Assembly (NCBI GenBank): GCA_021432655.1
Contig: MU271544.1
Coordinates: forward strand, 1-46,803
From: Atractiella rhizophila
Lineage: Eukaryota
DNA length: 46,803 nt
Direction of reading: 5' to 3'
In this document: piece by piece, positions 7,346 through 42,677 of the stretch
How positions within the stretch are numbered: position 1 is the stretch's first letter
How the letters are laid out: each line of letters starts with the position of its first letter
Notes under the pieces: generated by a model
Told to the model about the DNA's origin: nothing
What the model saw: the letters and a program-made list of their open reading frames with translations, nothing else
Database searches by the model: none
Translations under genes and position numbers: made by a program

Positions 7346-7995
7346 GTTCCTGATGAATCCTGCATTGGACTTGGCTGAATGCTGGCGGAGAAAGATGTGA
7401 GGATGAGATGTCGAATGTTGTTTCGAAGGGACGCGACGACCTTATCATGCCGCGGCAATTGATTCCGCAACCATAATCAAACCAACTCCTCCTGCGCTGG
7501 GCCAAGCTGGGCCAAACTGGATTAGCTGCTGGCGAAGATTTATAGTCTGGAGAATCTCTGTGCACCGTCTCTGGAAATACCAAGTTTGTACAATTCTACC
7601 TGTGTTATCGCAATCTCTTTTTGGTCTCTGGACTGTTGCCTTCCTGTAGAGGCAAGCAGGATCCTCTATTATCGAGTGATCAGTGCCCAAAATTCTCTCG
7701 GACAGTCGAACTGATTATCTGACCACATTGATCTTTGAACGAGCGATATTGCCATTACAGACCAGTGCCAAATTGCTGCCTCGGTATCTTGTAATGGTTA
7801 CTGCCGGTGATAAATCATCCATCTTCCTCCTGCTTACTAGTATTCCTGTCACTTGACAGGAAAGCATTAGCTCTTCGAGTATCCATGAAAGCGATTCGGT
7901 AACGCTTCCTCCATTATCGATGGCAACGATGACAGACGTCGAAGAATATCAAACCTGAATTCCAACTGAAACTGACTTCCATCCTCTGCACAGGA

Positions 7996-9643
7996 ATGGA
8001 GAACTACACGATCCACTCCTCCCGCGTTCTTCTTCCCTCAACAAACGAACCGATCGAGGCTGTCCTCACGCTCTCCCCCTCCACAGGCAAATTCGTGTCC
8101 ATCACTCGTGGTCCCCCTTCCGCCGACACTTCCATCAATATCGAACTCCACCACGCACTCGTCTTTCCCGGGTTGGTTGACGCGCATGTACACGTTAATG
8201 ATCCTGGACGGACAGAATGGGAGGAGTGGGGAAGGGCGACGGAGGCAGCTGCTGCCGGAGATTCGGCTTTTACTCTATTGCGACACTGCGATGAGTGGAA
8301 TTGAGAATTGTAATAGGTGTGACGACAATTGTGGATATGCCTCTTAATAGCGTTCCTCCGACTACCACGGTGGCTAATTTCAACACCAAGCTTGAAGCGG
8401 CGAAGAAGAGCATCAACGTAGACGTAGCGTTTTGGGGCGGGATCATTCCAACGAACGCCGTACGTCATTCCTTCTTTCTCTTTACTCGTCATTCTTGACA
8501 TATGTTCACGGAGAATAGGAGGACCTCAAACCTCTCATCGAGAAAGGCGTGAAGGGATTCAAGTGTTTTCTCTGTCCTTCAGGCGTGGACGAGTTCCCAT
8601 GTGTGAACGAGAGCGAAGTTCTGCGGGCCATGAAAGAGCTGGACGTGCGTCGTCCTCACATCTATTCTTTTCTCGCTGCTAACAACTCGTAGGGCACTGA
8701 TGTTCCGTTCCTCTTCCATGCAGAACTCGAGCAAAGTGCCTCCTCTCACCAACAAGAAGGAGGACCAGACGACCCAACTGTCTACGATTCCTTCTTAAAA
8801 ACGAGGCCGGACGATATGGAGTATCGAGCCATCGAATTGGTCATTAAATGTTTGAGGCAATACCCAAGAGTGCGAGCGCATATCGTGCACCTTTCCTGTG
8901 CGTTTCATCCTTCCTCTCATTTCCGACATTTCAGCTAAAAGGAGTGCCCAGCTGCCTCTTGTATTCCTTTGCTCCAATCGGCACAGGGAGAAGGACTGAG
9001 AATAACGGTCGAGACGTGCTTCCACTACCTCTGCCTCTCCGCAGATACCATTCCCGACTCCCAAACGCTATACAAATGTTGTCCACCCATCAGAACACAC
9101 GCCGTTCGTCTTTCCTCCATTCTTCCCCCTTTGCCCTCTAAAAGATACCGCAATCAGAATCGGGAAGCGCTTTGGTCCTCTCTCCTTTCCCCAACCGACG
9201 ACAGTCCGATCTCAATGGTCGTATCCGACCACTCACCCTCCACCAGCTCCTTGAAACACCCGTCCTTCCTCTCCGCCTGGGGCGGCATCTCCTCCCTCGG
9301 CCTAGGTCTACCTCTCCTTCTCACCGAACTGTCCGACCGTGCCGGCCCGCGTCGATACGAGCTTGCACGAAAGTGGCTAGCCGAAGAGCCGGCTCGACAT
9401 GCGGGTCTGCAGGGGAGGAAGGGGAGGATCGAGGTTGGGATGGATGCGGATTTGTGCGTTGTGAGGGAGGAGGAGTGGGTTATTGGGAGGGAGCAGCTGA
9501 GGTTTAAGAATGCTCATTCGCCGTATGCGAGCGAGGGGAGGAGGGTTGATGCGAAGGTCGTTAGGACGTTTTTGCGTGGAGTCGAGGTGTATAGGGAGGG
9601 TGAGGGACTGATGGTTCAGGGAGCTGGAAAGACCTTGTTGTGA
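7996..9643 (+). CDS. DAL1: Allantoinase (metal-dependent amidohydrolase), multi-exon
   Basis: [79 protein letters not shown]; about five short introns. Confidence 0.9.
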
Positions 9644-11585: not shown

Positions 11586-12274
11586 TGTTCGTTATCGTAC
11601 CCTTCCGTGTTTTAATGATGATGGAATGGATTAACATATGCCTTGAACCCCTCCCCTTTGGGACTTTTCGCCTTTTCGGGCGTGACGTGGAGCTGCCACA
11701 GTAATCTGTTAGATGATAGCTTGCCTTCTGGAATGTTGCATCGTTAATGTTTGATTGACATCGATACTTCCAGCTTCCATCATCATGATGGAGTGGCTGC
11801 ATTATTCCTGAGACCATTGAGTTACGTTAAGCGCAAAAGCTGAAATCAGGAAGTTTACTTCCTCTCCGAAATGTGAGAGTAGCGATAGGGGGCCAGGAGA
11901 ACATCTGAGTACGCTGGCATATTAGCCTACTTCTTCTTTCCTAAGTCAACATCCGTATAGTTACCACATCTCGTTCAAACCAGGCAATGACTCGCCGAGG
12001 GACGTCCAAATTGTACATTATAAAAAGTCCAGCACGGTCCAAGCCTGATTTCGCTTTTATTTGTGAACATCACTCTACTTGTACTCCTATCGTGAGCAAT
12101 GATTTTCAGCCTCCAAAGTCATGGTAAATCTACTCTGGAGCGCGGACACCGTGATGGCGCTCCAAAACGAGCTAGTCTGGCCAATGTGATGTGTGAGCCC
12201 TCGTTTCTCGTGCTAATAATCCAGATCAAGACTGACAAGTAGCCCCAGCTCTCAGGAAACGGAAAACTCAGGCT

Positions 12275-13495
12275 GTGACATCTGAAAGAGACGATCCGGG
12301 GCGGCCGTCGCTCCCATCTGATTTGATCCACCTCATCCTCAAGGGGATTTGGCTTGATGCGTTGGCTTGTTGGAAAGGACATTATGATGCAGTCTGCGAC
12401 TTCTGGCGGTTGAGGATGCTTTCCCGCACGTTTAGAGAAGAGGTTGTGCGATTGAGATGTCGTGTTATCACGGTACACTCTTACCGACAGCTTGAAAAGC
12501 TCATGCGCCGAAGCAACGCTCACCTCCATCCTTTCATTCGTATTGTCGAATTTCACATTGATTACGATCCTGAAACCTCTTCCTCTCCTTTCCTACCTAT
12601 CTTGACCTTTCAGTTCTCCTTGAAACCGATTGCAGATAACGTATGGAGGTGGATGTCTTCCTTGGTCTTTTTGGAAGAGTTGGAGTTTCATGGAGAGTTG
12701 CTCGAACTCGTTGTTCCACCCATTCGGGGTCTTCGCCGTCTACTTCTACGCCGATGGGGAGGTCTGCTCCCTCCACGGACACTACATAACATCGTCCCAC
12801 AATTGACTGATTTCAATTCGTTGGAGTCCCTAGAAATTGACGGATCGATCCATTGTTCCGACGATGCTTCTGCAACCCTTCAAGCCCCTTGCTCCGTACA
12901 AAGATTGTCTACAGGCCAGCATACTGCTGTTTCCAAAAGGAGCAAACCTCAAGGTACGATTAGGACAGTGCCGACTTTTTGTTCTTCACGAAACATCACC
13001 TCGCTTTCAACCCATGAGGCGAGCTGGAGTGTCAGAAAGCTGTATCGAGTGCTCGAGGTGCTAAAATCATCCTTGAACGAGCTTGCAGTTTTGTCCCTAC
13101 GTCGCCTAACACTTCCCGCTCTCCGTGCTCTTCGATGCCTCAAGTTGGATGGGAGATATCCTCACTCTCCCGAGTTCGCTACAATCGCCCCGCACTCAGA
13201 TTGTTGGTCTTCCCTCTCGGTCCTCAGCCTGACTCGCATTTCCATCCGTCAGCTTTCTGAAGAATACGTTCCAATTTACATCACACACTCGCTCACTCTA
13301 AAGGATTGTGTAATTAAGGTGCACGTCGCCGTCAGGTTATTAGAAGTAGAGCAAACAAAATTCCGTTTCGTCGCTTCCAACACGTATTCTTCACCTTCTC
13401 CATCGTACAAAGGACGCAGCAAAGAAAAAGTAGCTGTGTGGGATAGGCTGCGAGAGCAAGATGCAGAGTACGTTAGGCGAAAACAGACATTGTGA
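12275..13495 (+). CDS. Hypothetical F-box-like/LRR-like protein, tandem paralog 1
   Basis: 406-aa ORF with SLPSDLIHLIL F-box-like start and LxxLxL motifs; collinear with 14243-15451; a short upstream exon near 12099 is likely. Confidence 0.7.
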   Translation: MTSERDDPGRPSLPSDLIHLILKGIWLDALACWKGHYDAVCDFWRLRMLSRTFREEVVRLRCRVITVHSYRQLEKLMRRSNAHLHPFIRIVEFHIDYDPETSSSPFLPILTFQFSLKPIADNVWRWMSSLVFLEELEFHGELLELVVPPIRGLRRLLLRRWGGLLPPRTLHNIVPQLTDFNSLESLEIDGSIHCSDDASATLQAPCSVQRLSTGQHTAVSKRSKPQGTIRTVPTFCSSRNITSLSTHEASWSVRKLYRVLEVLKSSLNELAVLSLRRLTLPALRALRCLKLDGRYPHSPEFATIAPHSDCWSSLSVLSLTRISIRQLSEEYVPIYITHSLTLKDCVIKVHVAVRLLEVEQTKFRFVASNTYSSPSPSYKGRSKEKVAVWDRLREQDAEYVRRKQTL

Positions 13496-14242
13496 ATGAC
13501 TTTCATCAATGAGGTGCGTTGGGTACTCGCACAGCGATCAATGTACTTCTAGACTAACTTGTGACAACACGAGGAAGAGGGTCAAGTAGTTTGTTGCTGA
13601 TTTGTGATTTGTAACGATGTAATTTTAGTAGTGCGTCCTACTCACCTTTCCACCTTTATTCATCCTGATTTGTCAGTGAGCACTTGTCTTGATGAATGTT
13701 GGTATCTGCGCTATACAAAGACATTGTGGGGGAGACAACCCAAGTCACAGTATTATCTAGTTGAACGCAAATGCAACCAGTCCCATCAATACTGATGGAG
13801 AAACTTCAAGACCTGCAGGCAATCAACTGAGTACGAAGGCTTACTCAGTGAAAAATTTGTGAAGCGAATCGTCTGGGTCAGCGGAGTAAACTAGGTGTGG
13901 GTACCAGTGCCCGCATAATTAATCACCTGCACAAAGTCACTTAGTACGCATCTACGAGCCACTGGTGACTCGACAAGGGACTTGCTTGGTTAAATAGTAC
14001 CACTCGATCGTTATACTCTTCACTTAGAAGTCCACGTCGATGTATTGGCATTGAGCAATGTCAACTTTGTTTCAATACCGCAGATCTACTTTCCGGCCTC
14101 AGAACGGTGACAGTGCTCCTAAGCAAGCGAGTCTGGGCAAGTTTATTTGTGAGGCGTCATTCTTATGCCCTACTTCTTCTATCCAGAGCGAGACTGACGA
14201 CAGACCCCAGCTCTGAGGAAGAGGAAACCAGGAGTCAACAAC

Positions 14243-15451
14243 TTGGAAAAGCCGTCGCTCCCATCCGATTTGATCCACATCATTCTCAAGGGTATCTGGC
14301 TCGACGCGGTAGCACGCACAAGGGGAGACGCTGTTCACGAATTTTGGCAGTTAAGGACGATTTCTCGTGCGTTTAGAGAAGAGGTTGTCCGACTAAGGTG
14401 CCGCGAAATCACGGTGGGATCTTACGAACAACTCGAAAAGCTGATGTGTACTCAGCATGCTCATCTCCATCCTTTCATTTACAGTGTCAAATTTCAAATC
14501 GATCACAACGGTAGCATTTCGCCGCCACGCTACATGCCCATCTTGACCTTCCAATTTGCCTTTAGAGAACGATCGGACATGATATGGCAATGGATATCTT
14601 CCCTGTCAAATCTGGAAGAATTGGAGTTTCATGGCGACTTGCTCGAACTCGTGGTTCCACCCATTAACCATCTTCGCCGTCTGGTTCTATGCCGTAAGAA
14701 GGGTCTAGTTCCTCGGATAGCTATCCACAACATTGTCCCAAAGCTGGCTGATTTCTCTTCCCTGCAATGCCTAGAGGTCGATGGATCGATTGATTGTGCT
14801 GATGATGCTTCAGTAACTCTCCAAGTGCCTCCTTCCGTGAAGACGTTATCAATAGGACGGCGTGTCGTTCTGCCAGCATTGAAATCCGACATCATGATGA
14901 AGACAGTCCCTATTTTCTGTTTTTCACCACACATCACCTCGTTTTCGACCCACGAAACTGTTTGGCTTGTCGTGGCAGAACTTGAACGAGTACTTGAGGT
15001 GCTACAATCGTCTTTGACGGACCTTTCAGTCCTCGCCTTACATCGTCTCGTACTTCCCGCGCTCCCTGCGCTTCGATCCCTCACTTTGGAGGGGAAATAT
15101 TACACGACTGCCGAATTTTCAACCCTTGCACCCCGCTCAGATTGTTGGCGTTCCCTCTCAGTTCTTAATCTCACTCGCATTTGTATCAAACTGCCTTGTA
15201 GAGCACGGGAATCTGGCGGTCCTATTTTTATTACAAATTCCCTCACGCTCCGATGGTGTGCGATAAAGGTTCACCTGGCTATTGCTTTACTAGAAGTGGA
15301 GCAAACGAAGTACTGTTTCGCAGCTTTCAACGCGTATTCCTCTCCCCCGTACGAAGGATGTAGCGACCTCAAAGTCGCCCTATGGGACAAGATTCGAAGA
15401 CAAGATGCAGAGTGGGTGGAACAAAAGAAAACGCTGTTGTCAAGGGATTGA
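14243..15451 (+). CDS. Hypothetical F-box-like/LRR-like protein, tandem paralog 2
   Basis: 402-aa ORF aligning end to end with paralog 1 (PSLPSDLIH.ILKGIWLDA, FREEVVRLRCR, LEELEFHG.LLELVVPPI, LLEVEQTK). Confidence 0.7.
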   Translation: MEKPSLPSDLIHIILKGIWLDAVARTRGDAVHEFWQLRTISRAFREEVVRLRCREITVGSYEQLEKLMCTQHAHLHPFIYSVKFQIDHNGSISPPRYMPILTFQFAFRERSDMIWQWISSLSNLEELEFHGDLLELVVPPINHLRRLVLCRKKGLVPRIAIHNIVPKLADFSSLQCLEVDGSIDCADDASVTLQVPPSVKTLSIGRRVVLPALKSDIMMKTVPIFCFSPHITSFSTHETVWLVVAELERVLEVLQSSLTDLSVLALHRLVLPALPALRSLTLEGKYYTTAEFSTLAPRSDCWRSLSVLNLTRICIKLPCRARESGGPIFITNSLTLRWCAIKVHLAIALLEVEQTKYCFAAFNAYSSPPYEGCSDLKVALWDKIRRQDAEWVEQKKTLLSRD

Positions 15452-29785: not shown

Positions 29786-29810
29786 NNNNNNNNNNNNNNN
29801 NNNNNNNNNN
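29786..29810. other. Assembly gap (25 N)
   Basis: Run of exactly 25 N. Confidence 1.
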
Positions 29811-30470
29811 TAAGCTCTCGTACGAAAGTCTAAGCTCTCATACGAAAGCAAAGAGAAAATCTCTCGTACGAAAGCATAAGCCCTCGTACGAAAGTCTAAG
29901 CTCTCGTACGAAAGTCTAAGCACTCGTACGAAAGTCTAAGCACTCGTACGAAAGCATAAGACCTCGTACGAAAGTCTAAGCTCTCGTACGAAAGTATAAG
30001 CCCTCGTACGAAAGTCTCAGCTCTCGTACGAAAGTCTAAGCTCTCGTACGAAAGTCTAAGCACTCGTACGAAAGCATAAGACGTCGTACGAAAGTCTAAG
30101 CTCTCGTACGAAAGTATACAAGCTCTCGTACGAAGCATTATAAAGTCTCGTACGAAAGCAGACGAATCTCCTACGAAACCATATAACTCTCGTACGAAAG
30201 CTGTCGTACGAAACTATAAGCCCTCCCTTGTACGAAAGCAGGATAAAGTCTCGTACGAAAGCATACGAAATCTCGTACGAAAGTGTAGAAAATCTCTCGT
30301 ACGAAACCATATGACATCTCGTCCAAAGCAGTACGAACTCTCTCATACGCAACTGCAGGAAATCTCACACGAAAGCAGTACAACATCTCTCATACGAAGC
30401 GAATACAAAGTTTCTCGTATGAAAACTTTGCAAAGTCTCGCACAAAACCAATCTGAAGTCTTGTACGAGT
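29811..30470 (+). repeat. Tandem array of ~18-20-bp units AAGCTCTCGTACGAAAGTCT, decaying rightwards
   Basis: More than 25 copies of (C)TCGTACGAAAG; homogeneous near the gap, degenerate after ~30150. Confidence 0.95.
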
Positions 30471-31590: not shown

Positions 31591-32268
31591 ATTTTTTGAA
31601 TGGGGGACTTGTGTGGATCTCATCTGACGTACCACTCAATGGAGAAGCCAAGGGGAGAGGTGTGATGTTGTCATTGTGCAGAATAACAATGGGATCTTGG
31701 CTTTTGGCAAGGTGATGTGGTTATTCAAGGTACAATTTGACGGGAACGGCCTTCAACTGCCTTTTGTTCAGCCGTACGGGTCAGCAAGGACTGTGTGTCC
31801 CAGTGAATAACGAGATCTTATTGCCTACTTTACTAAAGCCTGCAACTTCGCTGCTACCTGTGTCAACAATCTTGACTCGGAGTTATTGCGGAGCCTATTC
31901 ACGCAGCCAGTGGACAATAATCGGTGAATTTCTGCAAGTCAGTTGAAGACTTTATCAAACGATCCCAAGGCTTAAGTTTGACATCTGTCTCTGAGTTCGA
32001 GCAAATCTTTGGAAGTAGTTCCTTCAGTAGCGTCACAATGAGTTGGTGGAGTGTATGCCTGTGGGTGCGCGGAATGATCGTGCATGCTTGCTGTGAGAGC
32101 TGGACGCTCATTGTCCCTCAGCCCACATCACACATCCTAGTCTCTCCCTGCCTTTCCTTCTTCCATGTTAGCAACAGTCACGTGACTAGCACGTGACTGG
32201 TGTGCTTTTGTTTGTCTCTCGGACACCTGGATCCCCAGCGGTTTTTCCACCATCTCACGCTTCGCTGG

Positions 32269-32921
32269 TGAAGTCGCTTATCCCGGACTAGAGGGAGAGT
32301 TCGAAGTGGGAATAAACGTTTGGTGGGCAAACACCGAAGCGGCTTAGTGAAAAGGAACTAGGGCAGCAGACTAGTGGTTTTGCAATGAAAAAAATGCGCT
32401 TTCAACACTATAATTGACCCAAAGTACACTAAGCAAGCACCTGAGGATGAGAGAAATAAGTAAGAAGTCAAATGAAAGTGTAGGATGCTCACAGCACGAG
32501 TGAGGAATGATATTTTCATCTAAAACTTCCCCTTTTATAGCTTTTCTCCTCTCCAGCGCTCCACCTGGCTCCACCCCCTTTTCCTCCTCAACCTCTGATC
32601 TCCTACATCCTTCCCCTAAGTCCTACGTTGCCCTATTTCCTTTTATCTTGCCCAGATTTTCTATCTTGTTCAATCGCCATTGTCTTCTCATTTAAGGTTA
32701 AGATGGAGTTTTCTATTTGTCCTTGTTCTATCTTGAATTGGCCTTTGTCTGCTTTTCCTTGTTCCGATTGAATTAACAACATGGTTGCGGAGTTATGCGT
32801 TGCAGTGAAGTACGTAATTTGGTCGGCGTTTGTAGTGAATTAGGCTGTTTGTCTCGCACGTGTCCGTCCTTGACGTACAGTTGTCACGTGATAGTATGTA
32901 CGGACGGGACGGGGTACGTCA
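32269..32921 (-). repeat. 3' LTR
   Basis: TGAAGTCG...TACGTCA; six substitutions versus 41705-42357. Confidence 0.95.
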
Positions 32922-32936
32922 TGTCCCTCCTGTTTG
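32922..32936 (-). promoter_or_regulatory. Polypurine tract
   Basis: Minus strand CAAACAGGAGGGACA abutting the 3' LTR. Confidence 0.7.
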
Positions 32937-33021
32937 CCGAGTCGCCCCCGACGAGTTCAAACTTTAATAGGACCCTAACCCTACGTTGGCCACGTCGTTC
33001 ACCTTCCTGCCCTAAAGTCAA

Positions 33022-33029
33022 TATATAAA
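33022..33029 (+). promoter_or_regulatory. Candidate TATA box for the antisense gene
   Basis: TATATAAA followed by a C/T-rich tract, ~190 bp upstream of ATG 33217. Confidence 0.5.
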
Positions 33030-33216
33030 CCACCATCCCTTCGTCAACCTCCCCCAACTTCAACCACCACCTTCCTCAACCTTCCCCCTTGTTCGTTTGC
33101 AAGCTGTCGGGTCTTAAGGAGCGACTAGCGAGCTACGATTTAGGCGGCGAATTTTTAATTTTTGAGTGAAATTTGCACGGGGTTTCAGTACCCTGTCGTT
33201 TTTCGCTTGCGCTCTA

Positions 33217-35045
33217 ATGGACTTCTCGCTTTCTCCCTCACGTGTGGAGGACCGAAGACTCTTTCTTTTCGACGTCGAAGGCGCTTCCAGGATAGAACTT
33301 GAAAAGAAGGCTGAAGATATTTTGCGTAGGACTCGTTTGCAGACTGGTGAACGTTTGATACAGTTTCCTCGTACGTCCTTCCTTCTGAGTAGTGGCTGGG
33401 TTGGTGTTCATTTTTCCTGTTGGTCCAGCGAATTGGAGTGTTCTTCGTGATTTGCGAAACTTCGATTTTAAATATGGGCATCTGCCTGCCTCATCCGCTT
33501 TTTGGGACTCTCCTCGCCTTGTTGTAGGCTCCCTTGACTTCTCTTCGCTTCCCCAGTTCTTCCTACGTGCGGTTGAAGGTTTCCTCTCCGTCTGGTTAAC
33601 TGTGGAGAAGGCCCAGGAGCTCGCCCGCCTTGTAAACTCGATTTTTCCTCCAAGCTCGACTGATCTTCCTTTGCCCACCCATCGCTACTTCCTTTCTGTG
33701 GTTTATATTTCTGCCTCTTGGTCTGCTGGGCCTGCTATTTGTCTCCTTCGAGTTCGAGACAATTCATGGGAGCCCAAGCAATTTCTGTTCGAAGAGCGTA
33801 AATGGATTGAGCGACAACTCCGCCGGTTGCAACGTATTTTCTTCGAGGACTTCTGTTTTTTCTGGACTCATCGCGCCATTGGCGAAGTCAAGTATGGTTC
33901 CTCCGTCCTTTCTGCGTGGCATGGATGGCAAGAGAGTGGTGCTCGCCCTGAAATGTTGGAGCCTTCCGCAATTATCGCGGCTGTATCATCATCTCGTGTT
34001 TGGGTTCGATTCTCAGCGTAAGCATCCCATCCTTGATCTATGCCCCCCCTTCTTGTGCTGACATGCTATTACTAGGTGGCGCCCTCTATTATCTTCGTCG
34101 TGCTCTCTATACGTTCCTGTGCCTGGCCAAGTCTTCCCTGTTCCTCCTCCTCGCCTTATCCGCCGTGAATATCCCCTATCTTCCGATTTTTCCTTCCCTC
34201 GCATTACCTTCGCCTCTCCGGCTCCTCCAATCCCGTCATCTCCTCCTTATGTTTTCTGTCCTCCCGATCCTTATCCAATTTATGGTCAATCGAACTTCCT
34301 CCCTGCGGTCCTTGGTATTTCCTGGCTGGATGTTTTCGAAATGTTTGAGTCTCAAATGGATGTTGAATATCCGGTCGCGCTCATCACTGATTATAATTTC
34401 TCCTGGGAACTTGAGCTTCGTGAAGACCCTTCAATCGATCGTCGCCTTCGCTATGTTTGCGTCGCCTTTGTCCACGATTCACCTGCTTCCACGTCTCGCG
34501 CCCGCCGCCTCGTTTCCTCCACTGGGTCTTCAGCTTTTCGAGCTCGATTCGGTGCTTTCGTTGGGATTCTCTCATCTGTTATGTACGGTTTCGACGTCTT
34601 TTATTTGAAGCATTGGTTACGCGCGGGCGATTTCTTTGAGTTTGGTCTCGACTCGGAATTTCCATCCTATAAAGAAGCTTGCGATATTCAGACCCAGGTC
34701 CTTCAGACTCCTTTCGACCCAGATCGCTGTCTTTCTTCCGTCGAAGACCTCAAGTCTTCCCATCGTCCTCCTCTTCGAATTTTTGTTACCCAAACATCGT
34801 CCAGTCCAGCGGTTTTTCGTTTTACATTTCGAGGTTCAGAGCATCAAAGGCCTTCAGGCATTCGTTCTGAAGAAGAGCAAATTGAAAGACGAAATAAACG
34901 GAAGACCAATGAGTTGAATAGAGCATTGAAAGGGGATTTGAAAAAGTAAGTCATCTATGTCTATTGGAATGCAGTGATTCTGAGAATTTCAAAATTTTCT
35001 AGTAAACGTCGAAGAGAAAAGGCTAAGCAAAAGCGGAATGTTTAG
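33217..35045 (+). CDS. Spliced antisense gene of unknown function inside the Ty3 element (~551 aa; exons 33217-33370, 33429-34017, 34076-34945, 35003-35045)
   Basis: Three 57-58-nt introns (GTACGT..CAG, GTAAGC..GCTGAC..TAG, GTAAGT..TAG) join ORFs 33166, 33392 and 34119 in frame; basic C-terminus RRNKRK...KNKRRREKAKQKRNV. Confidence 0.82.
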
Positions 35046-35192
35046 CTTTGAAAAAGAAACCAATATCTCCTCCCTCCTGTTTGAATTCTTTGCCTGTATT
35101 TATACCGTTTTCGTATTTCTAGTCTATATTTCCCTCGTTTTTATATTGTGTTATTATTTTTTTATTTTTGTATTTTTTTCCATGTCCTCCAT

Positions 35193-38100
35193 TTATCCCC
35201 AAACATAGTCTTCATCCAGCTGTTTCTTCTTTGGATTTCGCCGCAATGCATACGTCCTCCCTCCTGTTTTCACGACTGGCCCCCCAGTCTGAGCCTCCTG
35301 TCCCTGTACTTGTTGTGTAGCTTTCCTTTGTCCCGGATCGTCTTCGTTTCGTGAGATTAAGTCTTCCTCATCCGTCTCCTCCTCTTTTTCCCTCTCACGT
35401 TCCTCCTCAATCCTCCGTTTCCCCCAAGACGTTAGAGTCTCTTCGATCAGATCACCCTCTCCATCATCCACCACCGCTGTTGTTACACCGTCGTCCACCA
35501 ATTGTTTCCTCAAGTAGTACCGTCTAAGTCGTTTTGCTGCTACTAATCCATCGATTGCTGTCCCATCCAACTCCTCCAACAAATAAGATCCCCTGTCCTT
35601 TCGTTCCTTGATTTTGTAGGGCCCAAACCATCTTGTACGTAGCTTCTTACTATGAGCCATTTCTAGCCTTGCATTCTGCTTTAAAACTAACATTCCCGGC
35701 TCCAGAGGGTCTCGAATTTTATGTGCGTTTCGTCGATCAAGGTATGTCATCCCTTCCTCCCTGGCTTTTCTTAATTTCCTGATCACCCTTTCTAGATCTT
35801 CATCTCGTGCCTCGATTTGCCTCATCCTTGCCGCAATTAAATCCTTCCTCGACATAGTCTCCTCGAATTTAGGTATATAGAATGTCAAAAGTTCGAAGTC
35901 GACAGGTAATAGTGGGTCACAACCCAAAAGTAGTTGAAATGGTGATAGGTTTGTGGTCCTTTGTGTTGACACTCGTTCCGCGAATAATGCCCTGTTGAGG
36001 TGTAGGTGCCATTCCCATGGTCTGTCGCTACTGGCTTTCTCAATTGCCTTTACGATCTCCTGATGCCCTCTTTCGACTCGTCCATTTGCTTCTGAGTGGT
36101 AAGGTGTTGGATTGATGTACTTGCTCCCGCTCATTAAAATTGCAGCCTTCGCCTCTCCCCGAAATTCAGGTCCTCCATCCACAACATAGCATCCAAACGG
36201 TCCCCATCGCCATTTCACTTCCTCCACAAATCTCGCAATATCCTTTGCTCGAATCCTTTTCAACGCTTTCCCTTCTGGCCAACCCGTCAAATCATCCTTT
36301 AATAACAATAAGTAGGGGTATAGTCCCACTCCCATATGCACAACGTCCATTCCAACCTTTGAAAAGATGCCCGTGGGTACAGTTGCTCGGTGCGTTTCTT
36401 CCTCAGTCGTTCTTGCATTTTTCTGACATGCATCACAGCTACGAACATATTTCCCAACCCATCTCTTCATGCCAGGCCACCATCCTCTTGATTTCAGCCT
36501 TCTGTAAGTCTCTTGTTGTCCTCGATGGCCTAAGTCTTCATGTACTGATTTTGCAAATGCTCTACGTTCTTCTTCCCTATCGACTACCCTAACATGAATC
36601 CCATCTTCCTTCCTTCGCCACAGTTCTCCCTCCTGTAAAAAGAAATCCCCAGCTCTCCGTTTAACCCTTTCGAACGCTTTGTCAGAAATACCGTCCATTC
36701 GCTGAAGTGTCTGCAGAAATCGTCCTAACGCTGCGAATTGTGGATCTGGATAGTTATGTGAGTTGAAATTGACCCCCTGCCGCTCCAGTTGGTTGACATT
36801 AAGTTGCAGATTCCCAATCACTTTCTTTTCCTCTTCCTCCACCATATCTTCTGCACTCCTTGCTGGTTCGTCGTGTTCTGTTCTTGCTACTCGAGATAAG
36901 GCGTCTGGTAAAAGGAATTGTGCCCCCGGATGATGTCTAATATCGAATGTAAATAGATGAATAAAGGCATTCCATCGTGCCATTGGTGCATTTGGAAGGT
37001 TGGGTGAGTTTATCATCTGCACTAGAGATATAGCGTCGATGACAAGGGTGAAGTGGGTTCCCCAGAGATCATGTCGCAATTTCGCAAATATCTTCGCCAC
37101 CCCAGCCAGTTCCAGTTTCGATTGTGAGTACCTCTTCTCGACTTCCGTGAAACTTATTGACTCATATTTGACCGGTTGCGGTTTTCCACGTTCATCCTCC
37201 TGTGCCAAAACTCCTCCTGCTGCGACTTGACTTGAATCTACCATTAAGATAATTTTTCCTGCTCCTGGACCTCGATTTAGTGCTTTCAGAAGGATGTCTG
37301 CTCCAACTATCAGTTTCAGCCTTTCGAATGCCTCTTGTTGTTTCTTCCCCCAAAACCATTCTTGTTTATTCTTCAATAATATCCTCAAAGGCGCCGTTTC
37401 GTCTGAGAATTTGGGAATGAAAACTCGAACAAAGGTCACCGCTCCGTTAAAGGTACGCAATTCGTGAACATCTGTTGGTTGGGGCCAATCTAAAATTTTG
37501 TTCCGCTTCCTTGTGGTTATCCTCTTCCCTTCATATCCGCAATCCATTCCTACTATCTCGACAGATGGGCAGCAAATTGCCAGTTTTTCTCCAGATACCG
37601 TAAGTCCCGCTTCTTCTAATCGAAAAAGTATTCGCTCTAATGTAACCGCATATTCCCAGATAAATCGTCGAATCCCAGGATTGTCAGGCAATGCCTCGTT
37701 ATTGTAACGACTTTTAGGACCTTTGACCGTGATATCGTCAATAAAGATAACAGTAAAAGTTGGTATTTCGTCCTTCATGATGAAAACTGTGCAACGCTGA
37801 TATTCTGCCACGGAATTGGTAGCTCCCACCGGTAATCGTCGAAGTCGAAACTGTCCCAAGGGTGTTTGAAAAGCCGTCATGTCCCTCGTCATTTCATCGA
37901 GCTCCCGCTGGTCATATCCTCCCAAAATATCCAAAGCTCCAATACACGCATATCCCACACAATCGTCTGTATGTTCTGCAATGTTAGGAGGCAGCCCACC
38001 ATCTTTAATCGTCACCCCATTGAGTTTTTGTAGATTATGCACTATTCGGATCTTCCCATTCTTCTTCTCGACCGCGAACCAGGATGACAAATAAGGTGAT

Positions 38101-38834
38101 GCAGCAGGTTCGTAAAGTCCCGTTCGAATTCGTTCCCTGATTAACTCGATGACCGCTGGTTTAAGCGCAATTGGAATAGGAATTGGTTTCTCTTGCCATG
38201 GTTCATGTGGCACGGTTGGAATAATGTGCGGATTTGCATACGTCCTCTTTAGAAGGCCTCTTTCCCTGACATCAAAGGCAATCGCTTGCTCCCTCAGTCT
38301 CATCACGTGCAACAATAATTTCCGCTCCTCCTCACTTAGCCATCCTTCCGGTCCAAAATTCACTATCTTCAGTCTGTCTTCTGTCAACCGCCCTCCAGGG
38401 ATAAAAGGTGGTGGTCTTGGAGTCAAAGGCGTCTCGTAAGGATCCCTCGAATAAGGTGGCTGGCACATTGGTACGTTAACTCCTTGAGGCATTGGCACGT
38501 TTACTGGTTTTATTTTCTTGTCCACCGTCTTGTATTTGGTGTTAATTTGTATATCTTCTCTATCCTTGAATGCTTCCATTTCGATCCTTAAAAAGTTTAC
38601 TGCTAACTGTTTCTGTTTTGGAATAGAGATTCCTGCCGCAACCATTAAATGTGCTCTGTCTTCTTCTCCTATCACGTCGATCCTCCAGCTTCCTTCACCA
38701 GGTTCCTCATCCTTGATTTCGCAATTCCATATTTCCACCACTCCTCCACTCATTTCCTTCTTATCACGTTTAGGCAACTCCTCATTCTTCTCCTCTCGAA
38801 CTTGCCTTCTTCGAGAAGAGCCTCTTAGTTTTCC
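35193..38834 (-). CDS. pol: Pol: reverse transcriptase, RNase H, integrase (no chromodomain seen)
   Basis: RLPVGATNS, IFIDDITV, MVDSSQ..AGG, YSQSKLE, HEDLGH..CDAC, MDVVH..VDGGPEF..NGRVER; the frame opens before 38777 and overlaps the ORF1 end. Confidence 0.95.
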   Translation of the reverse strand, partial: GKLRGSSRRRQVREEKNEELPKRDKKEMSGGVVEIWNCEIKDEEPGEGSWRIDVIGEEDRAHLMVAAGISIPKQKQLAVNFLRIEMEAFKDREDIQINTKYKTVDKKIKPVNVPMPQGVNVPMCQPPYSRDPYETPLTPRPPPFIPGGRLTEDRLKIVNFGPEGWLSEEERKLLLHVMRLREQAIAFDVRERGLLKRTYANPHIIPTVPHEPWQEKPIPIPIALKPAVIELIRERIRTGLYEPAASPYLSSWFAVEKKNGKIRIVHNLQKLNGVTIKDGGLPPNIAEHTDDCVGYACIGALDILGGYDQRELDEMTRDMTAFQTPLGQFRLRRLPVGATNSVAEYQRCTVFIMKDEIPTFTVIFIDDITVKGPKSRYNNEALPDNPGIRRFIWEYAVTLERILFRLEEAGLTVSGEKLAICCPSVEIVGMDCGYEGKRITTRKRNKILDWPQPTDVHELRTFNGAVTFVRVFIPKFSDETAPLRILLKNKQEWFWGKKQQEAFERLKLIVGADILLKALNRGPGAGKIILMVDSSQVAAGGVLAQEDERGKPQPVKYESISFTEVEKRYSQSKLELAGVAKIFAKLRHDLWGTHFTLVIDAISLVQMINSPNLPNAPMARWNAFIHLFTFDIRHHPGAQFLLPDALSRVARTEHDEPARSAEDMVEEEEKKVIGNLQLNVNQLERQGVNFNSHNYPDPQFAALGRFLQTLQRMDGISDKAFERVKRRAGDFFLQEGELWRRKEDGIHVRVVDREEERRAFAKSVHEDLGHRGQQETYRRLKSRGWWPGMKRWVGKYVRSCDACQKNARTTEEETHRATVPTGIFSKVGMDVVHMGVGLYPYLLLLKDDLTGWPEGKALKRIRAKDIARFVEEVKWRWGPFGCYVVDGGPEFRGEAKAAILMSGSKYINPTPYHSEANGRVERGHQEIVKAIEKASSDRPWEWHLHLNRALFAERVSTQRTTNLSPFQLLLGCDPLLPVDFELLTFYIPKFEETMSRKDLIAARMRQIEARDEDLERVIRKLRKAREEGMTYLDRRNAHKIRDPLEPGMLVLKQNARLEMAHSKKLRTRWFGPYKIKERKDRGSYLLEELDGTAIDGLVAAKRLRRYYLRKQLVDDGVTTAVVDDGEGDLIEETLTSWGKRRIEEEREREKEEETDEEDLISRNEDDPGQRKATQQVQGQEAQTGGPVVKTGGRTYALRRNPKKKQLDEDYVWG
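38772..38834 (-). promoter_or_regulatory. Predicted -1 ribosomal frameshift signal (slippery site + H-type pseudoknot)
   Basis: G GAA AAC, 7-nt spacer, stem CUCUUCUCGAA/UUCGAGAGGAG, loop AGGCAA pairing with downstream UUGCCU. Confidence 0.7.
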
Positions 38835-41278
38835 GCCTCTTCCTCCTTTTCTTCAATGGATACAGTCGTCATTTTTCCTAGCGCCACATCATCTAGGTTT
38901 CGATATTGCCATTTCAAGTTTTCTGCCGGAATTTTGTAGCGGAGTCGATGGTAGCTCTGGCGGACCGAAATAATAACAGAATCGTCTGGCGTATCGTAAT
39001 TCAGAAATGCTTTCGAGTCGTGAAGGAATGCTTGTCCAAGGATAATGCCGTGGGTTATAGATGGTGTAACGAAGAAATGCTGAGGGATGGTCATAGATCC
39101 TAGATTGATGTCGACATTTTCTGCGATTCCAGCAATAGCGCTCGTGAGGCCATTGACTCCCGTGATAGAATAAGAACTTGTAAGCCGTAAGCTTGCTTGT
39201 ATTGCTTCCTGGGTTGCTTTTGACATTCCATTCATTTGAGCGCCACAATCAATCATTGCAGGATATCGTCGCCCAGCCACGGTTAAGGTCAAATACATGA
39301 GTTGTCCGCTGAAGGTTGGCGGCCTAGGTTTCGCAAAGCGTCGTTCCCTGGAAAGTCCAGTTACTTCTTCTTCTTCCAGCGCTTGTTCTGCCGCTATCCT
39401 TGCGTGATGTTGCGGATGCATACAATCTACCATCTTCCTTCCAACACCCTTTCGAAGTGCTTCCAATAGTGATGGTGCGTATTTTTCCACTATTACTTCT
39501 GCCACTCGTAACTCCTCTTTCATTTTTAGGAGCTCTCTCTGATCCTCCTCGCTAGGCGTATTCTTCTCCTCCATCGTGGTTACTTTCATTTTTACTTCTT
39601 CGACTGGCTCAGGTTCCTGCATAGCAACTTGGGTTTCCTCCTTTTGGTCTGAGATGATAACAGCTGTTTCGAATCGAGTTCCTAAAGCTGGTGGACTCCA
39701 GGATAAATGAATGTTACTGGCAGACAATGTTGACTGAGCATCGTTTGTTGCAGGTACTTCTACAATAGCTGCTGTATTCGCTGTCGTCGTCTCTGGTTTG
39801 GCAGGTAAAGGTGTTGTATTCGTCCCAGTCGCAGGGATCTCTTGCTGATTTTGATTTGTTTGGGGTCCATTGCTTCGTCCAACCCCTCCTCCATATCCTC
39901 CACCTCTTCCTCTCCAGTTATTGTTACCATATCCTCCTCTCCCGCCATTATTCCATCCTCCGCCATTCCAGTTATTATTCCATCCTCCTTGATTCTGGCT
40001 CCATCCTCCTCCATTCCCTCCTAGCCCTGCATTCTCCTGAAGTTGACGCTGAAGGCTTCCCACTGTTTGAGACAAACTCGAAATTTGGTCTTGGAGCGCT
40101 TGAAAGGCATCATCTGGTTTTGGAATGGTAGGTGAAGCTACCTTTGTTTGGATTTTAATCTCATTAACTTTCATGGCTCCCTTCTCCTTGCCTTTGGTTC
40201 GTTTTTTCCTATCCTCCTCTTCTTCGCTTTCAGATTCATCCTCACTATCACTATCCCAGCTTCCCAATCTCAGGCTCACATTGCGGCTCTTTCCCCCATA
40301 ATATCCTTTCCAGGGCTCGCGCCTCCCGTACTCTCCATCCTCCTCTTCTTCCATTATTGTTTTGACATACTCCCAGACTTTATCGACTGTTGGTATGCTC
40401 CTTCTCTTTCTCTTGATTTTTACCTCCCCTTCAGTTCCTTCCATTGTTTTCATTGTTTCTTCCTTTATCCTCTTCATTTCCTCCTCACGCTTCCTTCTTT
40501 CACTAATGACCTCCTGGATGCTTTCTGGTAACGAATCCCAGAAGAAGTGTCGAGCCTCCTCTTCTGTGATCTGGTCATTTTCCAATAAGGAGTCAAGGAT
40601 CTCCTGATATTTTAAGATATAAGTTTTCACTTTCTCTTTAGTGTATCGTTTGGATTTGATAAACTGATTTGCCCATTTTTCCAGGCTCCTCCGGGTGTAC
40701 TCGAATTCTTCAAGGCTAGGCGCCCATGTCTCAATCGCTCTCCTTTTCAGACCTTCCCAATTTCCATCTTTGAACTCTTGCCATCCCCGCACTCGCTTTT
40801 TGATGTCCACCCTTTCGATGTCCACACATTCCAAAAACACTTTTACTTTTAGGCTATCTAAAATTTTCTTCTGGTCCTCCTCTTCCCATATTGCTATCCT
40901 GTCCTCCAACGTTTTCAAGCTCTCCCGAATCTTACTTCCATCGAATTGAATTCCTTTTGCCAGTTTAATGATTGAACCCATCTTGGTTTTTGCCGCCTGA
41001 GGTACGTAATTTTCAGTGTTTTTGATTTGATCGTTGACTGGTATAAAGGAAATTTCCTCTTCTGTTCGTTCAATATCGTCCTCAGCCAATCCTCGAGCAC
41101 TCGCTGGTACCTCTTCTACCAATCCCAAAGCCTCTTCTAGGTTTAAAGTCTGATCACTATCCAATGGTTCTTCGCTTTCTTCTCGTAATCGCTCTAATAT
41201 TCCTTCTCTTGTAGGTAATCCCTTCCTAATTTCCTCCAATTCCCTTCTAACTTCTTTTCCTTTTGGTGTAGACTTCAA
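38825..41278 (-). CDS. gag: Gag with C-terminal aspartic protease
   Basis: 817-aa ORF; FDGSKI..L gag-like region, Gly/Asn/Trp-rich tract, AMIDCGAQMN...IILGQAFL protease motifs; start codon uncertain. Confidence 0.88.
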   Translation of the reverse strand: MKSTPKGKEVRRELEEIRKGLPTREGILERLREESEEPLDSDQTLNLEEALGLVEEVPASARGLAEDDIERTEEEISFIPVNDQIKNTENYVPQAAKTKMGSIIKLAKGIQFDGSKIRESLKTLEDRIAIWEEEDQKKILDSLKVKVFLECVDIERVDIKKRVRGWQEFKDGNWEGLKRRAIETWAPSLEEFEYTRRSLEKWANQFIKSKRYTKEKVKTYILKYQEILDSLLENDQITEEEARHFFWDSLPESIQEVISERRKREEEMKRIKEETMKTMEGTEGEVKIKRKRRSIPTVDKVWEYVKTIMEEEEDGEYGRREPWKGYYGGKSRNVSLRLGSWDSDSEDESESEEEEDRKKRTKGKEKGAMKVNEIKIQTKVASPTIPKPDDAFQALQDQISSLSQTVGSLQRQLQENAGLGGNGGGWSQNQGGWNNNWNGGGWNNGGRGGYGNNNWRGRGGGYGGGVGRSNGPQTNQNQQEIPATGTNTTPLPAKPETTTANTAAIVEVPATNDAQSTLSASNIHLSWSPPALGTRFETAVIISDQKEETQVAMQEPEPVEEVKMKVTTMEEKNTPSEEDQRELLKMKEELRVAEVIVEKYAPSLLEALRKGVGRKMVDCMHPQHHARIAAEQALEEEEVTGLSRERRFAKPRPPTFSGQLMYLTLTVAGRRYPAMIDCGAQMNGMSKATQEAIQASLRLTSSYSITGVNGLTSAIAGIAENVDINLGSMTIPQHFFVTPSITHGIILGQAFLHDSKAFLNYDTPDDSVIISVRQSYHRLRYKIPAENLKWQYRNLDDVALGKMTTVSIEEKEEEAEN

Positions 41279-41684
41279 GATCCTGGTTGATGGCGTGGTA
41301 GTGGTTTTACGAGGGGCACTAGGTACTTCTCGAGGGGTGGATTGTGGCGTCTGTTTCGAAAATTTGCTGCTAAAGAGGGCAAGAGATGAGGGAAGCTCCT
41401 TAAGAGGATATTGGGTTGGTGTCTTCTTCCTTAAGGGATCCAGTTCGTTGATAATCTTGAGGGGAAAGGGGTATGCTGACGAGGTCGAATTAGGAAATGG
41501 TTTGCTGACGAGTTGTCCACATGTGCTCGAAGGCCTTCAATCGCAATCGTGAGTCGTCTACCGTCCTTGTTCTTCTTGAGCTTCAACTGACCAGGCGAAC
41601 CCAGTGCGGTCAAATCTCTCGTTCCCGTCAAAGTTGAATGATCAAACAAATGATAGTCAAAGATAAAAAAATAAAGTGACAAAT

Positions 41685-41702
41685 TCCTCTCTCTGAACGC
41701 CA
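41685..41702 (-). promoter_or_regulatory. Primer-binding-site-like sequence
   Basis: Minus strand TGGCGTTCAGAGAGAGGA 2 nt downstream of the 5' LTR; primer tRNA not identified. Confidence 0.6.
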
Positions 41703-41704
41703 AA

Positions 41705-42357
41705 TGAAGTCGCTTATCCCGGACTAGAGGGAGAGTTCGAAGTGGGAATAAACGTTTGGTGGGCAAACACCGAAGCGGCTTAGTGAAAAGGAACTAGGGC
41801 AGCAGACTAGTGGTTTTGCAATGAAAAAAATGCGCTTTCAACACTATAATTGACCCAAAGTACACTAAGCAAGCACCTGAGGATGAGAGAAATAAGTAAG
41901 AAGTCAAATGAAAGTGTAGGATGCTCACAGCACGAGTGAGGAATGATATTTTCATCTAAAACTCCCCCTTTTATAGCTTTTCTCCTCTCCAGCACTCCAC
42001 CTGGCTCCACCCCCTTTTCCTCCTCAACCTCTGATCTCCTACATCCTTCCCCTAAGTCCTACGTTGCCCTATTTCCTTTTATCTTGCCCAGATTTTCTAT
42101 CTTGTTCAATCGCCATTGTCTTCTCATTTAAGGTTAAGATGGAGTTTTCTATTCGTCCTTGTTCTATCTTGAATTGGCCTTTGTCTGCTTTTCCTTGTTC
42201 CGATTGAATTAACAACATGGTTGCGGAGTTATGCGTTGCGGTGAAGTACGTAATTTGGTTGGCGTTTGTAGTGAATTAGGCTGTTTGTCTCGCACGTGTC
42301 CGTCCTTGACGTACAGTTGTCACGTGATAGTATGTACGGACGGGACAGGGTACGTCA
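41705..42357 (-). repeat. 5' LTR
   Basis: 653 bp, TG..CA, minus-strand TATAAAA near 41970. Confidence 0.95.
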
Positions 42358-42677
42358 CTGGGATCCACGGACGTCGTTCCATTGCATTCCAAGAGCGGTT
42401 TTTCCACCATCTCACACTTCGCTGGGATCCAGCTCACACTTGTGGGCCTGGATTGCAGTATAACAAAGATGAGCTGATCCAGGCAGGGCACGAGTGCCCA
42501 TCTAAGCCAGCAGGCAAGACTGCACAGAAAGGGACAGGGCAGAAGGCTCACCCCAGATGCTGCTTGGCGCTTCAGGACAAAGAGCAGTTAGCGCTTCTGA
42601 CCTGCACCCAGAAGGAAGCGGCGAGAGGCCTGCTTGTGGGAGATGGCGGGTTGGAGGAGGTCTCCGTACTTTGCCTT

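Follow-up and report, generated by a model that had tools for sequence, protein, structure and literature searches.

A spliced antisense gene, probably an accessory gene of its carrier, in a Ty3/Gypsy retrotransposon of the fungus Atractiella rhizophila

Introduction

For 25 years, antisense additional open reading frames (ORFs) have been recorded in long terminal repeat (LTR) retrotransposons, chiefly those of plants, and to our knowledge none of them has a demonstrated function. In the sections of the literature that deal with them (PMC7264820, PMC8365987, PMC4227169, PMC5987419), ORFs of this kind, situated between pol and the 3' LTR, form a recognized class in plants, with the elements Grande, RIRE2, Retand with TRP28, and PvRetro13, and are described for one family of fungi, the element Boty of Botrytis and Sclerotinia with its gene brtn. 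The present work concerns a gene of this architecture from Atractiella rhizophila, located at 33217-35045 on the plus strand of a 46,803-nt stretch of DNA (assembly GCA_021432655.1, contig MU271544.1, positions 1 to 46,803 of the forward strand; the whole stretch is called the window, and all positions refer to it). The gene has three introns and lies inside a Ty3/Gypsy retrotransposon that occupies the minus strand.

According to the relevant parts of PMC7264820 and PMC11963269, plant genes of this type (aORF-3R) occur in the majority of copies of their family, are transcribed, and show no clear similarity to other proteins, and the same passages assign to Grande gene23 its own promoter and a nuclear product. 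The initial annotation of the window, made without database searches, had named antisense ORFs of plants as precedents; these exist, but only plants were cited there, and the fungal brtn of Boty precedes the present gene (PMC7264820, section on this element). Two further systems are of interest. The HBZ gene of the deltaretrovirus human T-cell leukemia virus type 1 (HTLV-1) is characterized in a part of PMC11963269 as antisense, nuclear, and critical for the virus. The wtf genes of Schizosaccharomyces pombe are, as given in a part of PMC7175516, intron-containing, about 1 kb long, tied to Tf LTRs, and selfish. Attention to antisense and spliced transcripts is called for in a review of 2020 (PMC7264820, in the portion on such transcripts).

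Results

Gene structure and splicing

The gene is placed between the pol stop and the 3' LTR, opposite to gag-pol, and consists of four exons. The joined coding sequence (CDS) is 1656 nt long and encodes 551 amino acids (aa); it ends with TAG and has no internal stops. The coding part of exon 1 (33217-33370, ATG at 33217) is identical to the public model P0003 (538 aa), a hypothetical protein BT69DRAFT_1338764 of Atractiella rhizophila, which is an independent gene model. It is followed by intron 1 (33371-33428, 58 nt, GTACGT..CAG) and exon 2 (33429-34017), the latter covered by contigs of RNA runs. Intron 2 (34018-34075, 58 nt, GTAAGC..TAG) has a CTGAC branch-like motif. Exon 3 (34076-34945) matches residues 249-537 of P0003 at 100%, and intron 3 (34946-35002, 57 nt, GTAAGT..TAG) separates it from the coding part of exon 4 (35003-35045), which was read from the sequence and contains a KRRR cluster and then the TAG stop. 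Three ORF pieces had been claimed in the initial annotation, where four exons were found, the last of 43 nt; its intron lengths of 58, 58, and 57 nt and its product of 551 aa proved right.

Among public sequencing runs, 24 containing 32922-35192 were listed, and four were aligned to 32200-36200 at 88% likeness. These are X1 (DNA, organism A), X3 and X4 (RNA, organism B, two studies), and X5 (RNA, organism C), the RNA or DNA type of the runs being a guess of the tool. By the rule of the tool, a joint is firm if there are at least 31 letters on both sides. The joint 33370/33429 was detected in X3 (246-nt contig, 90 letters on the shorter side) and in X5 (one contig, 30 letters), the joint 34017/34076 in X4 (one 480-nt contig, 33 letters on the shorter side), and the joint 34945/35003 in X4 (52 letters on the shorter side) and X5 (26 letters). 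All three skip exactly 58, 58, and 57 nt with GT..AG ends, and they come from three studies and two organisms. Each intron has one firm bridging contig, and introns 1 and 3 have a second, weaker contig from another organism. None of these exon joints was present in any of the 205 aligned contigs of the DNA run X1, the contigs of which read through intron 2 (33943-34277) and intron 3 (34843-35092). Intron 1 is kept in one X5 contig (33341-33443). The RNA contigs differ from the window copy by 1-6%. The intact, spliced antisense accessory gene proposed initially is thus supported, with all its predicted joints in likely-RNA contigs and none in DNA-run contigs.

The public model P0003 has introns 1 and 2 at the same places, so that two of the predicted introns are used independently there, and reads through intron 3. 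Retention of this intron leads to an immediate stop and to the 538-aa form, as in P0003. The RNA contigs favour the 551-aa form over this one.

A TATA box upstream of the gene had also been predicted, and TATATAAA is present at 33022-33029 on the plus strand, about 100 nt inside the element as measured from the LTR edge. It is a putative core promoter; this function is proposed from the TATA box at 33022 only, and contigs cannot show transcript starts. Among the contigs listed, those of the RNA runs start at 33042 (X5), 33058 (X4), and 33070 (X3), and they reach to 35054. According to these starts, the 5' untranslated region (UTR) extends at minimum over 33042-33216. There is no ATG in this covered leader, and therefore the frame opens at the first AUG. 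The 3' UTR extends at least to 35054, the end of an X4 contig. Between the convergent stops of the gene and pol there is a spacer of 147 nt (35046-35192), T-rich on the plus strand. RNA-run depth was nil on the LTR (32200-33003) and on pol (35148-36200). As X3-X5 were selected by the block itself, this absence is at most a weak hint of transcript ends and is uninformative on sense transcription. The initial annotation had equated the intron lengths with those of the host, and checks in the window gave no confirmation of this: a motif scan detected 25 intron-like sites as against 22.6 in shuffles, and two rounds of exon chaining of an amidohydrolase gene (described below) resulted in no solution or in ambiguous solutions.

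Coding frame and selective constraint

The open frame of the spliced transcript is 568 codons long. The plus strand is pyrimidine-rich over the whole element, which lowers the frequency of stops, and for this reason chance was tested explicitly by 5000 shuffles, in which the longest frame averaged 121 codons and never exceeded 316. The longest plus-strand frame antisense to gag-pol is 161 codons, where stops make up 4.0% of codons, and the remaining two frames of the CDS contain 9 and 28 stops.

Among the listed CDS differences between copies, 10 out of 18 are synonymous, while the share expected from the X1 mutation spectrum is 0.274 (P=0.011). In four X1 contigs with complete difference lists (records 3-6, 1124 nt), nine of 13 exonic differences are synonymous (P=0.002), and the density of differences is two in 69 intron bases versus 13 in 1055 exon bases. 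A hand estimate of omega from these four records (399 synonymous and 1254 non-synonymous sites) is about 0.15-0.25. The differences between copies show a signal of purifying selection. Constraint across copies, on which the initial annotation had made its gene depend, is visible as synonymous bias, but some X1 copies carry indels in the gene.

These data also bear on the explanation that the antisense RNA itself is functional, forming double-stranded RNA with the genomic RNA and leading to RNA interference or copy-number control, while the frame is incidental. The overlap of the antisense transcript with the genomic RNA covers about 2 kb in the 3' part of the latter, and an RNA role for antisense additional ORFs is raised in a section of PMC7264820. 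The low number of stops on a pyrimidine-rich strand would favour an incidental frame, but a 568-codon frame over three observed joints exceeds all 5000 shuffles, the first AUG opens it, and the copies differ with a synonymous bias, so an RNA role with an incidental frame is unlikely. An RNA role and a protein role are not exclusive.

Carrier element

The carrier of the gene is a Ty3/Gypsy LTR retrotransposon of 10,089 bp on the minus strand (32269-42357). The 3' LTR (32269-32921, minus strand) and the 5' LTR (41705-42357, minus strand) were delimited by blastn against each other and by reading of their ends. They are 653 nt each, both with TG..CA termini, and have six mismatches and no gaps, that is 99.08% identity, in agreement with the roughly 99% estimated initially. 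The left copy of the target-site duplication CTGG (32265-32268) and its partner (42358-42361) were read from the flanks. As a side observation on the insertion target, the 32 nt left of the element (32237-32268) recur with 31 of 32 identical at 42394-42425, 37 nt right of it, and the target itself is therefore a short tandem duplication. A putative polypurine tract (32922-32938), purine-rich on the minus strand, abuts the 3' LTR and was assigned by position and composition. A putative primer-binding site (41687-41704, minus strand), beginning with TGG two bases inside the 5' LTR on the minus strand, was assigned by position.

Gag and protease are coded by an open frame of 903 codons (38825-41536, minus strand), in which an aspartyl protease was recognized by Pfam, and pol by an open frame of 1219 codons (35193-38852, minus strand) with reverse transcriptase, RNase H, and integrase. 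The two frames overlap by 28 nt, with pol in -1 relation. Pfam matches on the pol residues are RVT_1 (262-436), RT_RNaseH (533-631), and Integrase_H2C2 (760-813), and the order protease, reverse transcriptase, RNase H, integrase assigns the element to Ty3/Gypsy. The integrase core is divergent in sequence. Pfam gave no rve match (integrase catalytic core) for 35193-36500 on the minus strand even at E<=10, while the D, D, and E residues of the core are visible by eye, and the zinc-binding domain and a weak Tf2-type SH3 match were obtained in Pfam. No chromo family was matched at E<=10 in the last 435 pol residues, there is no CCHC knuckle in the carrier element, and no Rfam family was found in 32000-42600. 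The element is young and apparently intact.

The pol stop (35193) is separated from the LTR edge (32921) by 2,271 nt of extra DNA, which corresponds to the 2.2 kb noted initially. On the minus strand, no frame in this 2,271-nt block exceeds 148 codons, and thus the block contains no sense-strand env-like gene.

Copies of the block in the DNA run

The X1 contigs cover the block throughout. According to identity, 69 of the 205 contigs are at least 99% identical to the window copy, 65 are 95-99%, 60 are 90-95%, and 11 are below 90% identical. Variant letters at 33245 and 34664 are each present in up to four distinct X1 contigs. With several diverged variants in X1, a one-off insertion of the block, which would have contradicted the initial annotation, is ruled out. 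The introns are retained in the DNA contigs of other copies. The summed contig depth of X1 is about 1000-5300 on the LTR, 190-530 on the block, and 210-900 on pol, where depth is not copy number. As an observation aside, a several-fold excess of LTR depth would fit many solo LTRs, with the same limit of depth as a measure.

The interval from pol to the LTR, 2.27 kb, is unusually long, and this alone would speak for a nested insertion of another mobile element or for a chimeric artefact of assembly. Such an origin is hardly tenable. The block has no flanking repeats, no second target duplication, and no similarity elsewhere in the window, and its composition is continuous with that of the element. 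X1 contigs link the LTR to the left edge of the block (32895-33090) and the gene to the spacer (34843-35092), and X1 depth is gapless up to pol, though no listed contig bridges the boundary at 35193.

The variants are also relevant for a possible domestication, in which the gene would have been born in the element and now be kept for the host, with transcripts from one or a few fixed copies. This agrees with the single annotated copy in protein collections and with the 1-6% distance of the RNA contigs from the window copy. However, the element around the window copy has LTRs of 99.08% identity, its gag-pol frames are open, several variants exist, and RNA contigs of different runs carry different letters, for example at 33245, 34082, and 34499. 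Domestication is accordingly judged improbable.

Protein product

The protein can be divided into an N-terminal part (residues 1-248), a proline-rich linker (249-320, 19 P), an acidic part (321-505, isoelectric point (pI) 5.2), and a basic tail (506-551, 18 K+R, pI 11.5). The basic tail, predicted initially to resemble a nuclear localization signal (NLS), indeed has a bipartite-like match at 522-541. This pattern and the sole K[KR]x[KR] match (KRRR at 539) both need exon 4, and hence removal of intron 3 creates the NLS-like signal. The signal was recognized as a pattern and does not demonstrate nuclear import.

Exon 3 was compared with 1.84 billion protein representatives in a profile-free search, and only P0003 and one bacterial protein were obtained. 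The latter, a repetitive protein of 3594 aa, was rejected as spurious, since the match falls on a proline/serine-rich stretch. In a word-based search of 5.8 billion protein clusters, exon 3 had no match at near lengths, and P0003 matched only itself at near lengths, in a cluster with a single member on a single contig, and nothing at shorter lengths. Pfam recognized no family on the exons, the N-terminus, or P0003; a CMC4 match (E 0.03-0.06) fails the cut-off and was dismissed as a chance match. There were no matches to PDB sequences at E<=10. The ESM Atlas returned no feature match, its own model had a predicted local distance difference test score (pLDDT) of 0.27, and the structural neighbours were all below a template modelling score (TM) of 0.4. 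In AlphaFold2 models made without alignment, pLDDT was 33.0 over the whole protein and 37.5 over residues 314-537, and only the C-terminal helix was confident. The statement of the initial annotation that no domain is recognizable holds for Pfam, PDB sequences, ESM Atlas, and AlphaFold2. Of the metagenome contigs of the Joint Genome Institute (JGI), 20 pattern matches with P0003 and 359 with the integrase part of pol were obtained, and none was confirmed in either case. Within the window there is no paralogue or internal repeat of the gene. By these comparisons, the protein is a lineage-restricted orphan.

On the plus strand, the CDS is composed of A.19, C.27, G.22, and T.33 (40% purine), and the gag-pol region on the same strand of A.21, C.27, G.19, and T.34, while host DNA in the window has about.25 of each. 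The similar composition of CDS and gag-pol points to long residence or birth inside an element with A-rich genomic RNA and not to recent capture. Together with the lack of relatives, it makes the protein a likely case of origin or evolution wholly within a transposon. The contrary view is that a host gene was recently picked up by one element lineage through transduction and is passive cargo. Gene capture by LTR elements is documented (PMC7264820, in the part on this subject), and the spliceosomal introns of host type and the own TATA box of the gene would suit such an origin. But no paralogue besides P0003 and the spurious bacterial match was found among the 1.84 billion representatives, the word-based searches returned only the protein itself, the strand composition resembles the element and not host DNA, and several diverged variants with synonymous bias exist. 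Recent capture is therefore quite improbable. The initial annotation had offered three roles, an anti-silencing factor, a transposition regulator, or captured cargo, and the last of them is the least likely because of the element-like composition and because no host paralogue was found.

Weight of the evidence

Several points weigh against an expressed and selected gene of the element. In two of the five contigs that carry joints, one side is covered by fewer than 31 letters. That X3-X5 are RNA is a guess of the tool, and the evidence is at the nucleic-acid level; if these runs were DNA, the joints would represent processed copies, and splicing would still be proven. The contigs are strandless, and the plus strand was deduced from the GT..AG ends, which would read CT..AC on the other strand, so the spliced molecules are plus-strand transcripts. 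The earliest RNA contig begins 20 nt past the first T of the TATA box, and the true start may be upstream. On the pyrimidine-rich strand there are fewer stops (2.8% of codons in the block) and long frames are easier to obtain. Eight of the 18 listed CDS differences alter the amino acid, with R540H and R549Q among them falling in the basic tail, and the counts cover the listed differences, with 146 further ones outside them. Some X1 copies are broken within the gene: one nucleotide is deleted at 33624 (depth 90 of 644) or inserted behind 33703 (depth 94 of 500), or 84 nt are skipped from 33338 to 33423 over the border of exon 1 and intron 1 (depth 89); these depths match a sub-population diverged by about 10% (record 2, depth 77), as is expected for old dead copies. 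In the searches above, no homologue, domain, or confident fold backs any function.

On balance, it is highly probable that the locus is a real, expressed, and selected coding gene of the element. It is considered probable that this accessory protein-coding gene is one of the retrotransposon family's own, with the architecture of those antisense additional ORFs that lie between pol and the 3' LTR.

Proposed mode of action

Transcription of the gene proceeds on the plus strand, likely from the internal TATA promoter about 100 nt inside the element. The transcript is spliced at the three short GT-AG introns, as was seen in the contigs, and its first AUG opens the 551-codon frame, which presumably is translated. 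Introns antisense to the genomic RNA are not spliced from it, a principle used in retrotransposition reporters with an antisense intron. The introns of the gene are on the strand opposite to the genomic RNA, which cannot lose them, and they thus pass through reverse transcription into every new copy. The predicted product comprises two regions without a confident fold, the linker rich in proline, and a helical tail of strongly basic character, in which removal of intron 3 completes the bipartite NLS-like motif, and it may be imported into the nucleus.

A role in the regulation of the element's own expression is suggested by analogy with Grande gene23, for which such action is proposed, and with HTLV-1 HBZ, for which it is shown. 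From this analogy, entry of the protein into the nucleus and action on the expression or integration of its own element is possible, and is put forward tentatively as the most likely function. More speculative, and rather doubtful at present, is a nuclear regulator born in the retrotransposon and needed for the persistence of the family, imported by means of the signal formed on removal of intron 3 and tuning or shielding the expression of its element, for example by countering RNA-interference or chromatin silencing provoked by the sense-antisense RNA pair. If true, it would correspond in fungi to the antisense regulators of retroviruses, such as HBZ, and would have originated de novo within a transposon.

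Other features of the window

A multi-exon amidohydrolase gene is situated at 7933-9643 on the plus strand, with Amidohydro_1/3 matches of its N- and C-terminal ends in separate frames; its introns were not unambiguously placed. A 928-codon frame at 2658-5444 (plus strand) has TPR_12/TPR_11 matches and about 12 tandem 120-nt units (repeats at 3951-5571), 65-91% identical, and is read as a TPR-repeat protein of the host, the repeat units of which are very young. Two frames of 419 and 417 codons at 12236-13495 and 14198-15451 (plus strand), 1941 nt apart and with stretches of 74-76% DNA identity, have no Pfam family and represent a tandem duplicate of an uncharacterized gene. A tandem array with about 17 units of 20 nt (29818-30157) adjoins an assembly gap of 25 N (29786-29810). 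Another gap of 812 N (1201-2012) is the cause of a dip of GC in the composition profile.

Discussion

The gene fits, by architecture, into the class of antisense additional ORFs, and judging from the sequence comparisons it seems to match none of the proteins of this class that were tested. The Atractiella element and Boty are both fungal Ty3/Gypsy elements with an extra antisense gene of unknown function beside gag-pol, to judge for Boty from the sections on it in the cited papers. However, Boty has an ascomycete host and an integrase chromodomain (PMC4227169, in the part describing the element), whereas the Atractiella element is from a basidiomycete and has no chromodomain match at E<=10. 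The product of brtn was compared by description only; in the search of 1.84 billion representatives, P0003 was the sole accepted match of exon 3.

The plant aORF-3R genes, such as Grande gene23, RIRE2, and the TRP28 ORFs of Retand, are likewise antisense between pol and the 3' LTR (PMC7264820 and PMC11963269, sections on these ORFs). Their carriers belong, as described there, to the non-chromovirus Tat/Retand lineages, while the carrier in Atractiella is fungal. TRP28 (PF04195 Transposase_28) had no Pfam match in the exons or in P0003. The word 'intron' is absent from the texts of PMC7264820 and PMC11963269 as far as these were available, and the supplements of PMC11963269 and PMC8365987 could contain gene structures for further antisense ORFs. 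By comparison, three introns were seen spliced in the Atractiella gene, and the available plant aORF-3R texts do not mention introns. In searches of the open-access literature, which cannot prove absence, no fungal LTR element was described as carrying an antisense gene with introns. Among the papers listed for Atractiella rhizophila, judged by title and opening of the abstract, none seemed to deal with its transposons.

The mRNA of HBZ is spliced, and HBZ has a bZIP domain. In the working model, the likeness to HBZ consists in antisense orientation and a place at the 3' end of a retroelement, together with a spliced mRNA and a basic nuclear protein that would modulate the transcription of its own element. 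HBZ differs in its bZIP domain and in its start, which is located in the 3' LTR, whereas the TATA box in Atractiella is internal and there is no sequence relation between the two. Pfam gave no bZIP family at E<=10, and the Atractiella protein terminates with the basic tail, which no zipper follows. The wtf genes are similar to the Atractiella gene in that they are intron-containing and LTR-associated. Unlike it, they are flanked by solo LTRs and not placed inside an intact element, and they code for membrane proteins with poison and antidote functions; for the Atractiella gene there is no indication of membrane segments or of meiotic drive.

The gene does not represent a new principle. It is a clean test case for a gene class of no known function, and an unusually clean one, with a young and intact-looking element, a complete gene, three verified junctions, and a selection signal, in a root-endophytic fungus with a small genome. 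It is also a concrete demonstration of a retroelement carrying an intron-bearing gene through reverse transcription on the opposite strand. Its role, if testable, would address what antisense genes do for their elements. Compared with the systems described so far, the gene is set apart by its host from the Pucciniomycotina basidiomycetes, by a carrier without the chromodomain found in Boty, and by three introns with evidence of splicing.

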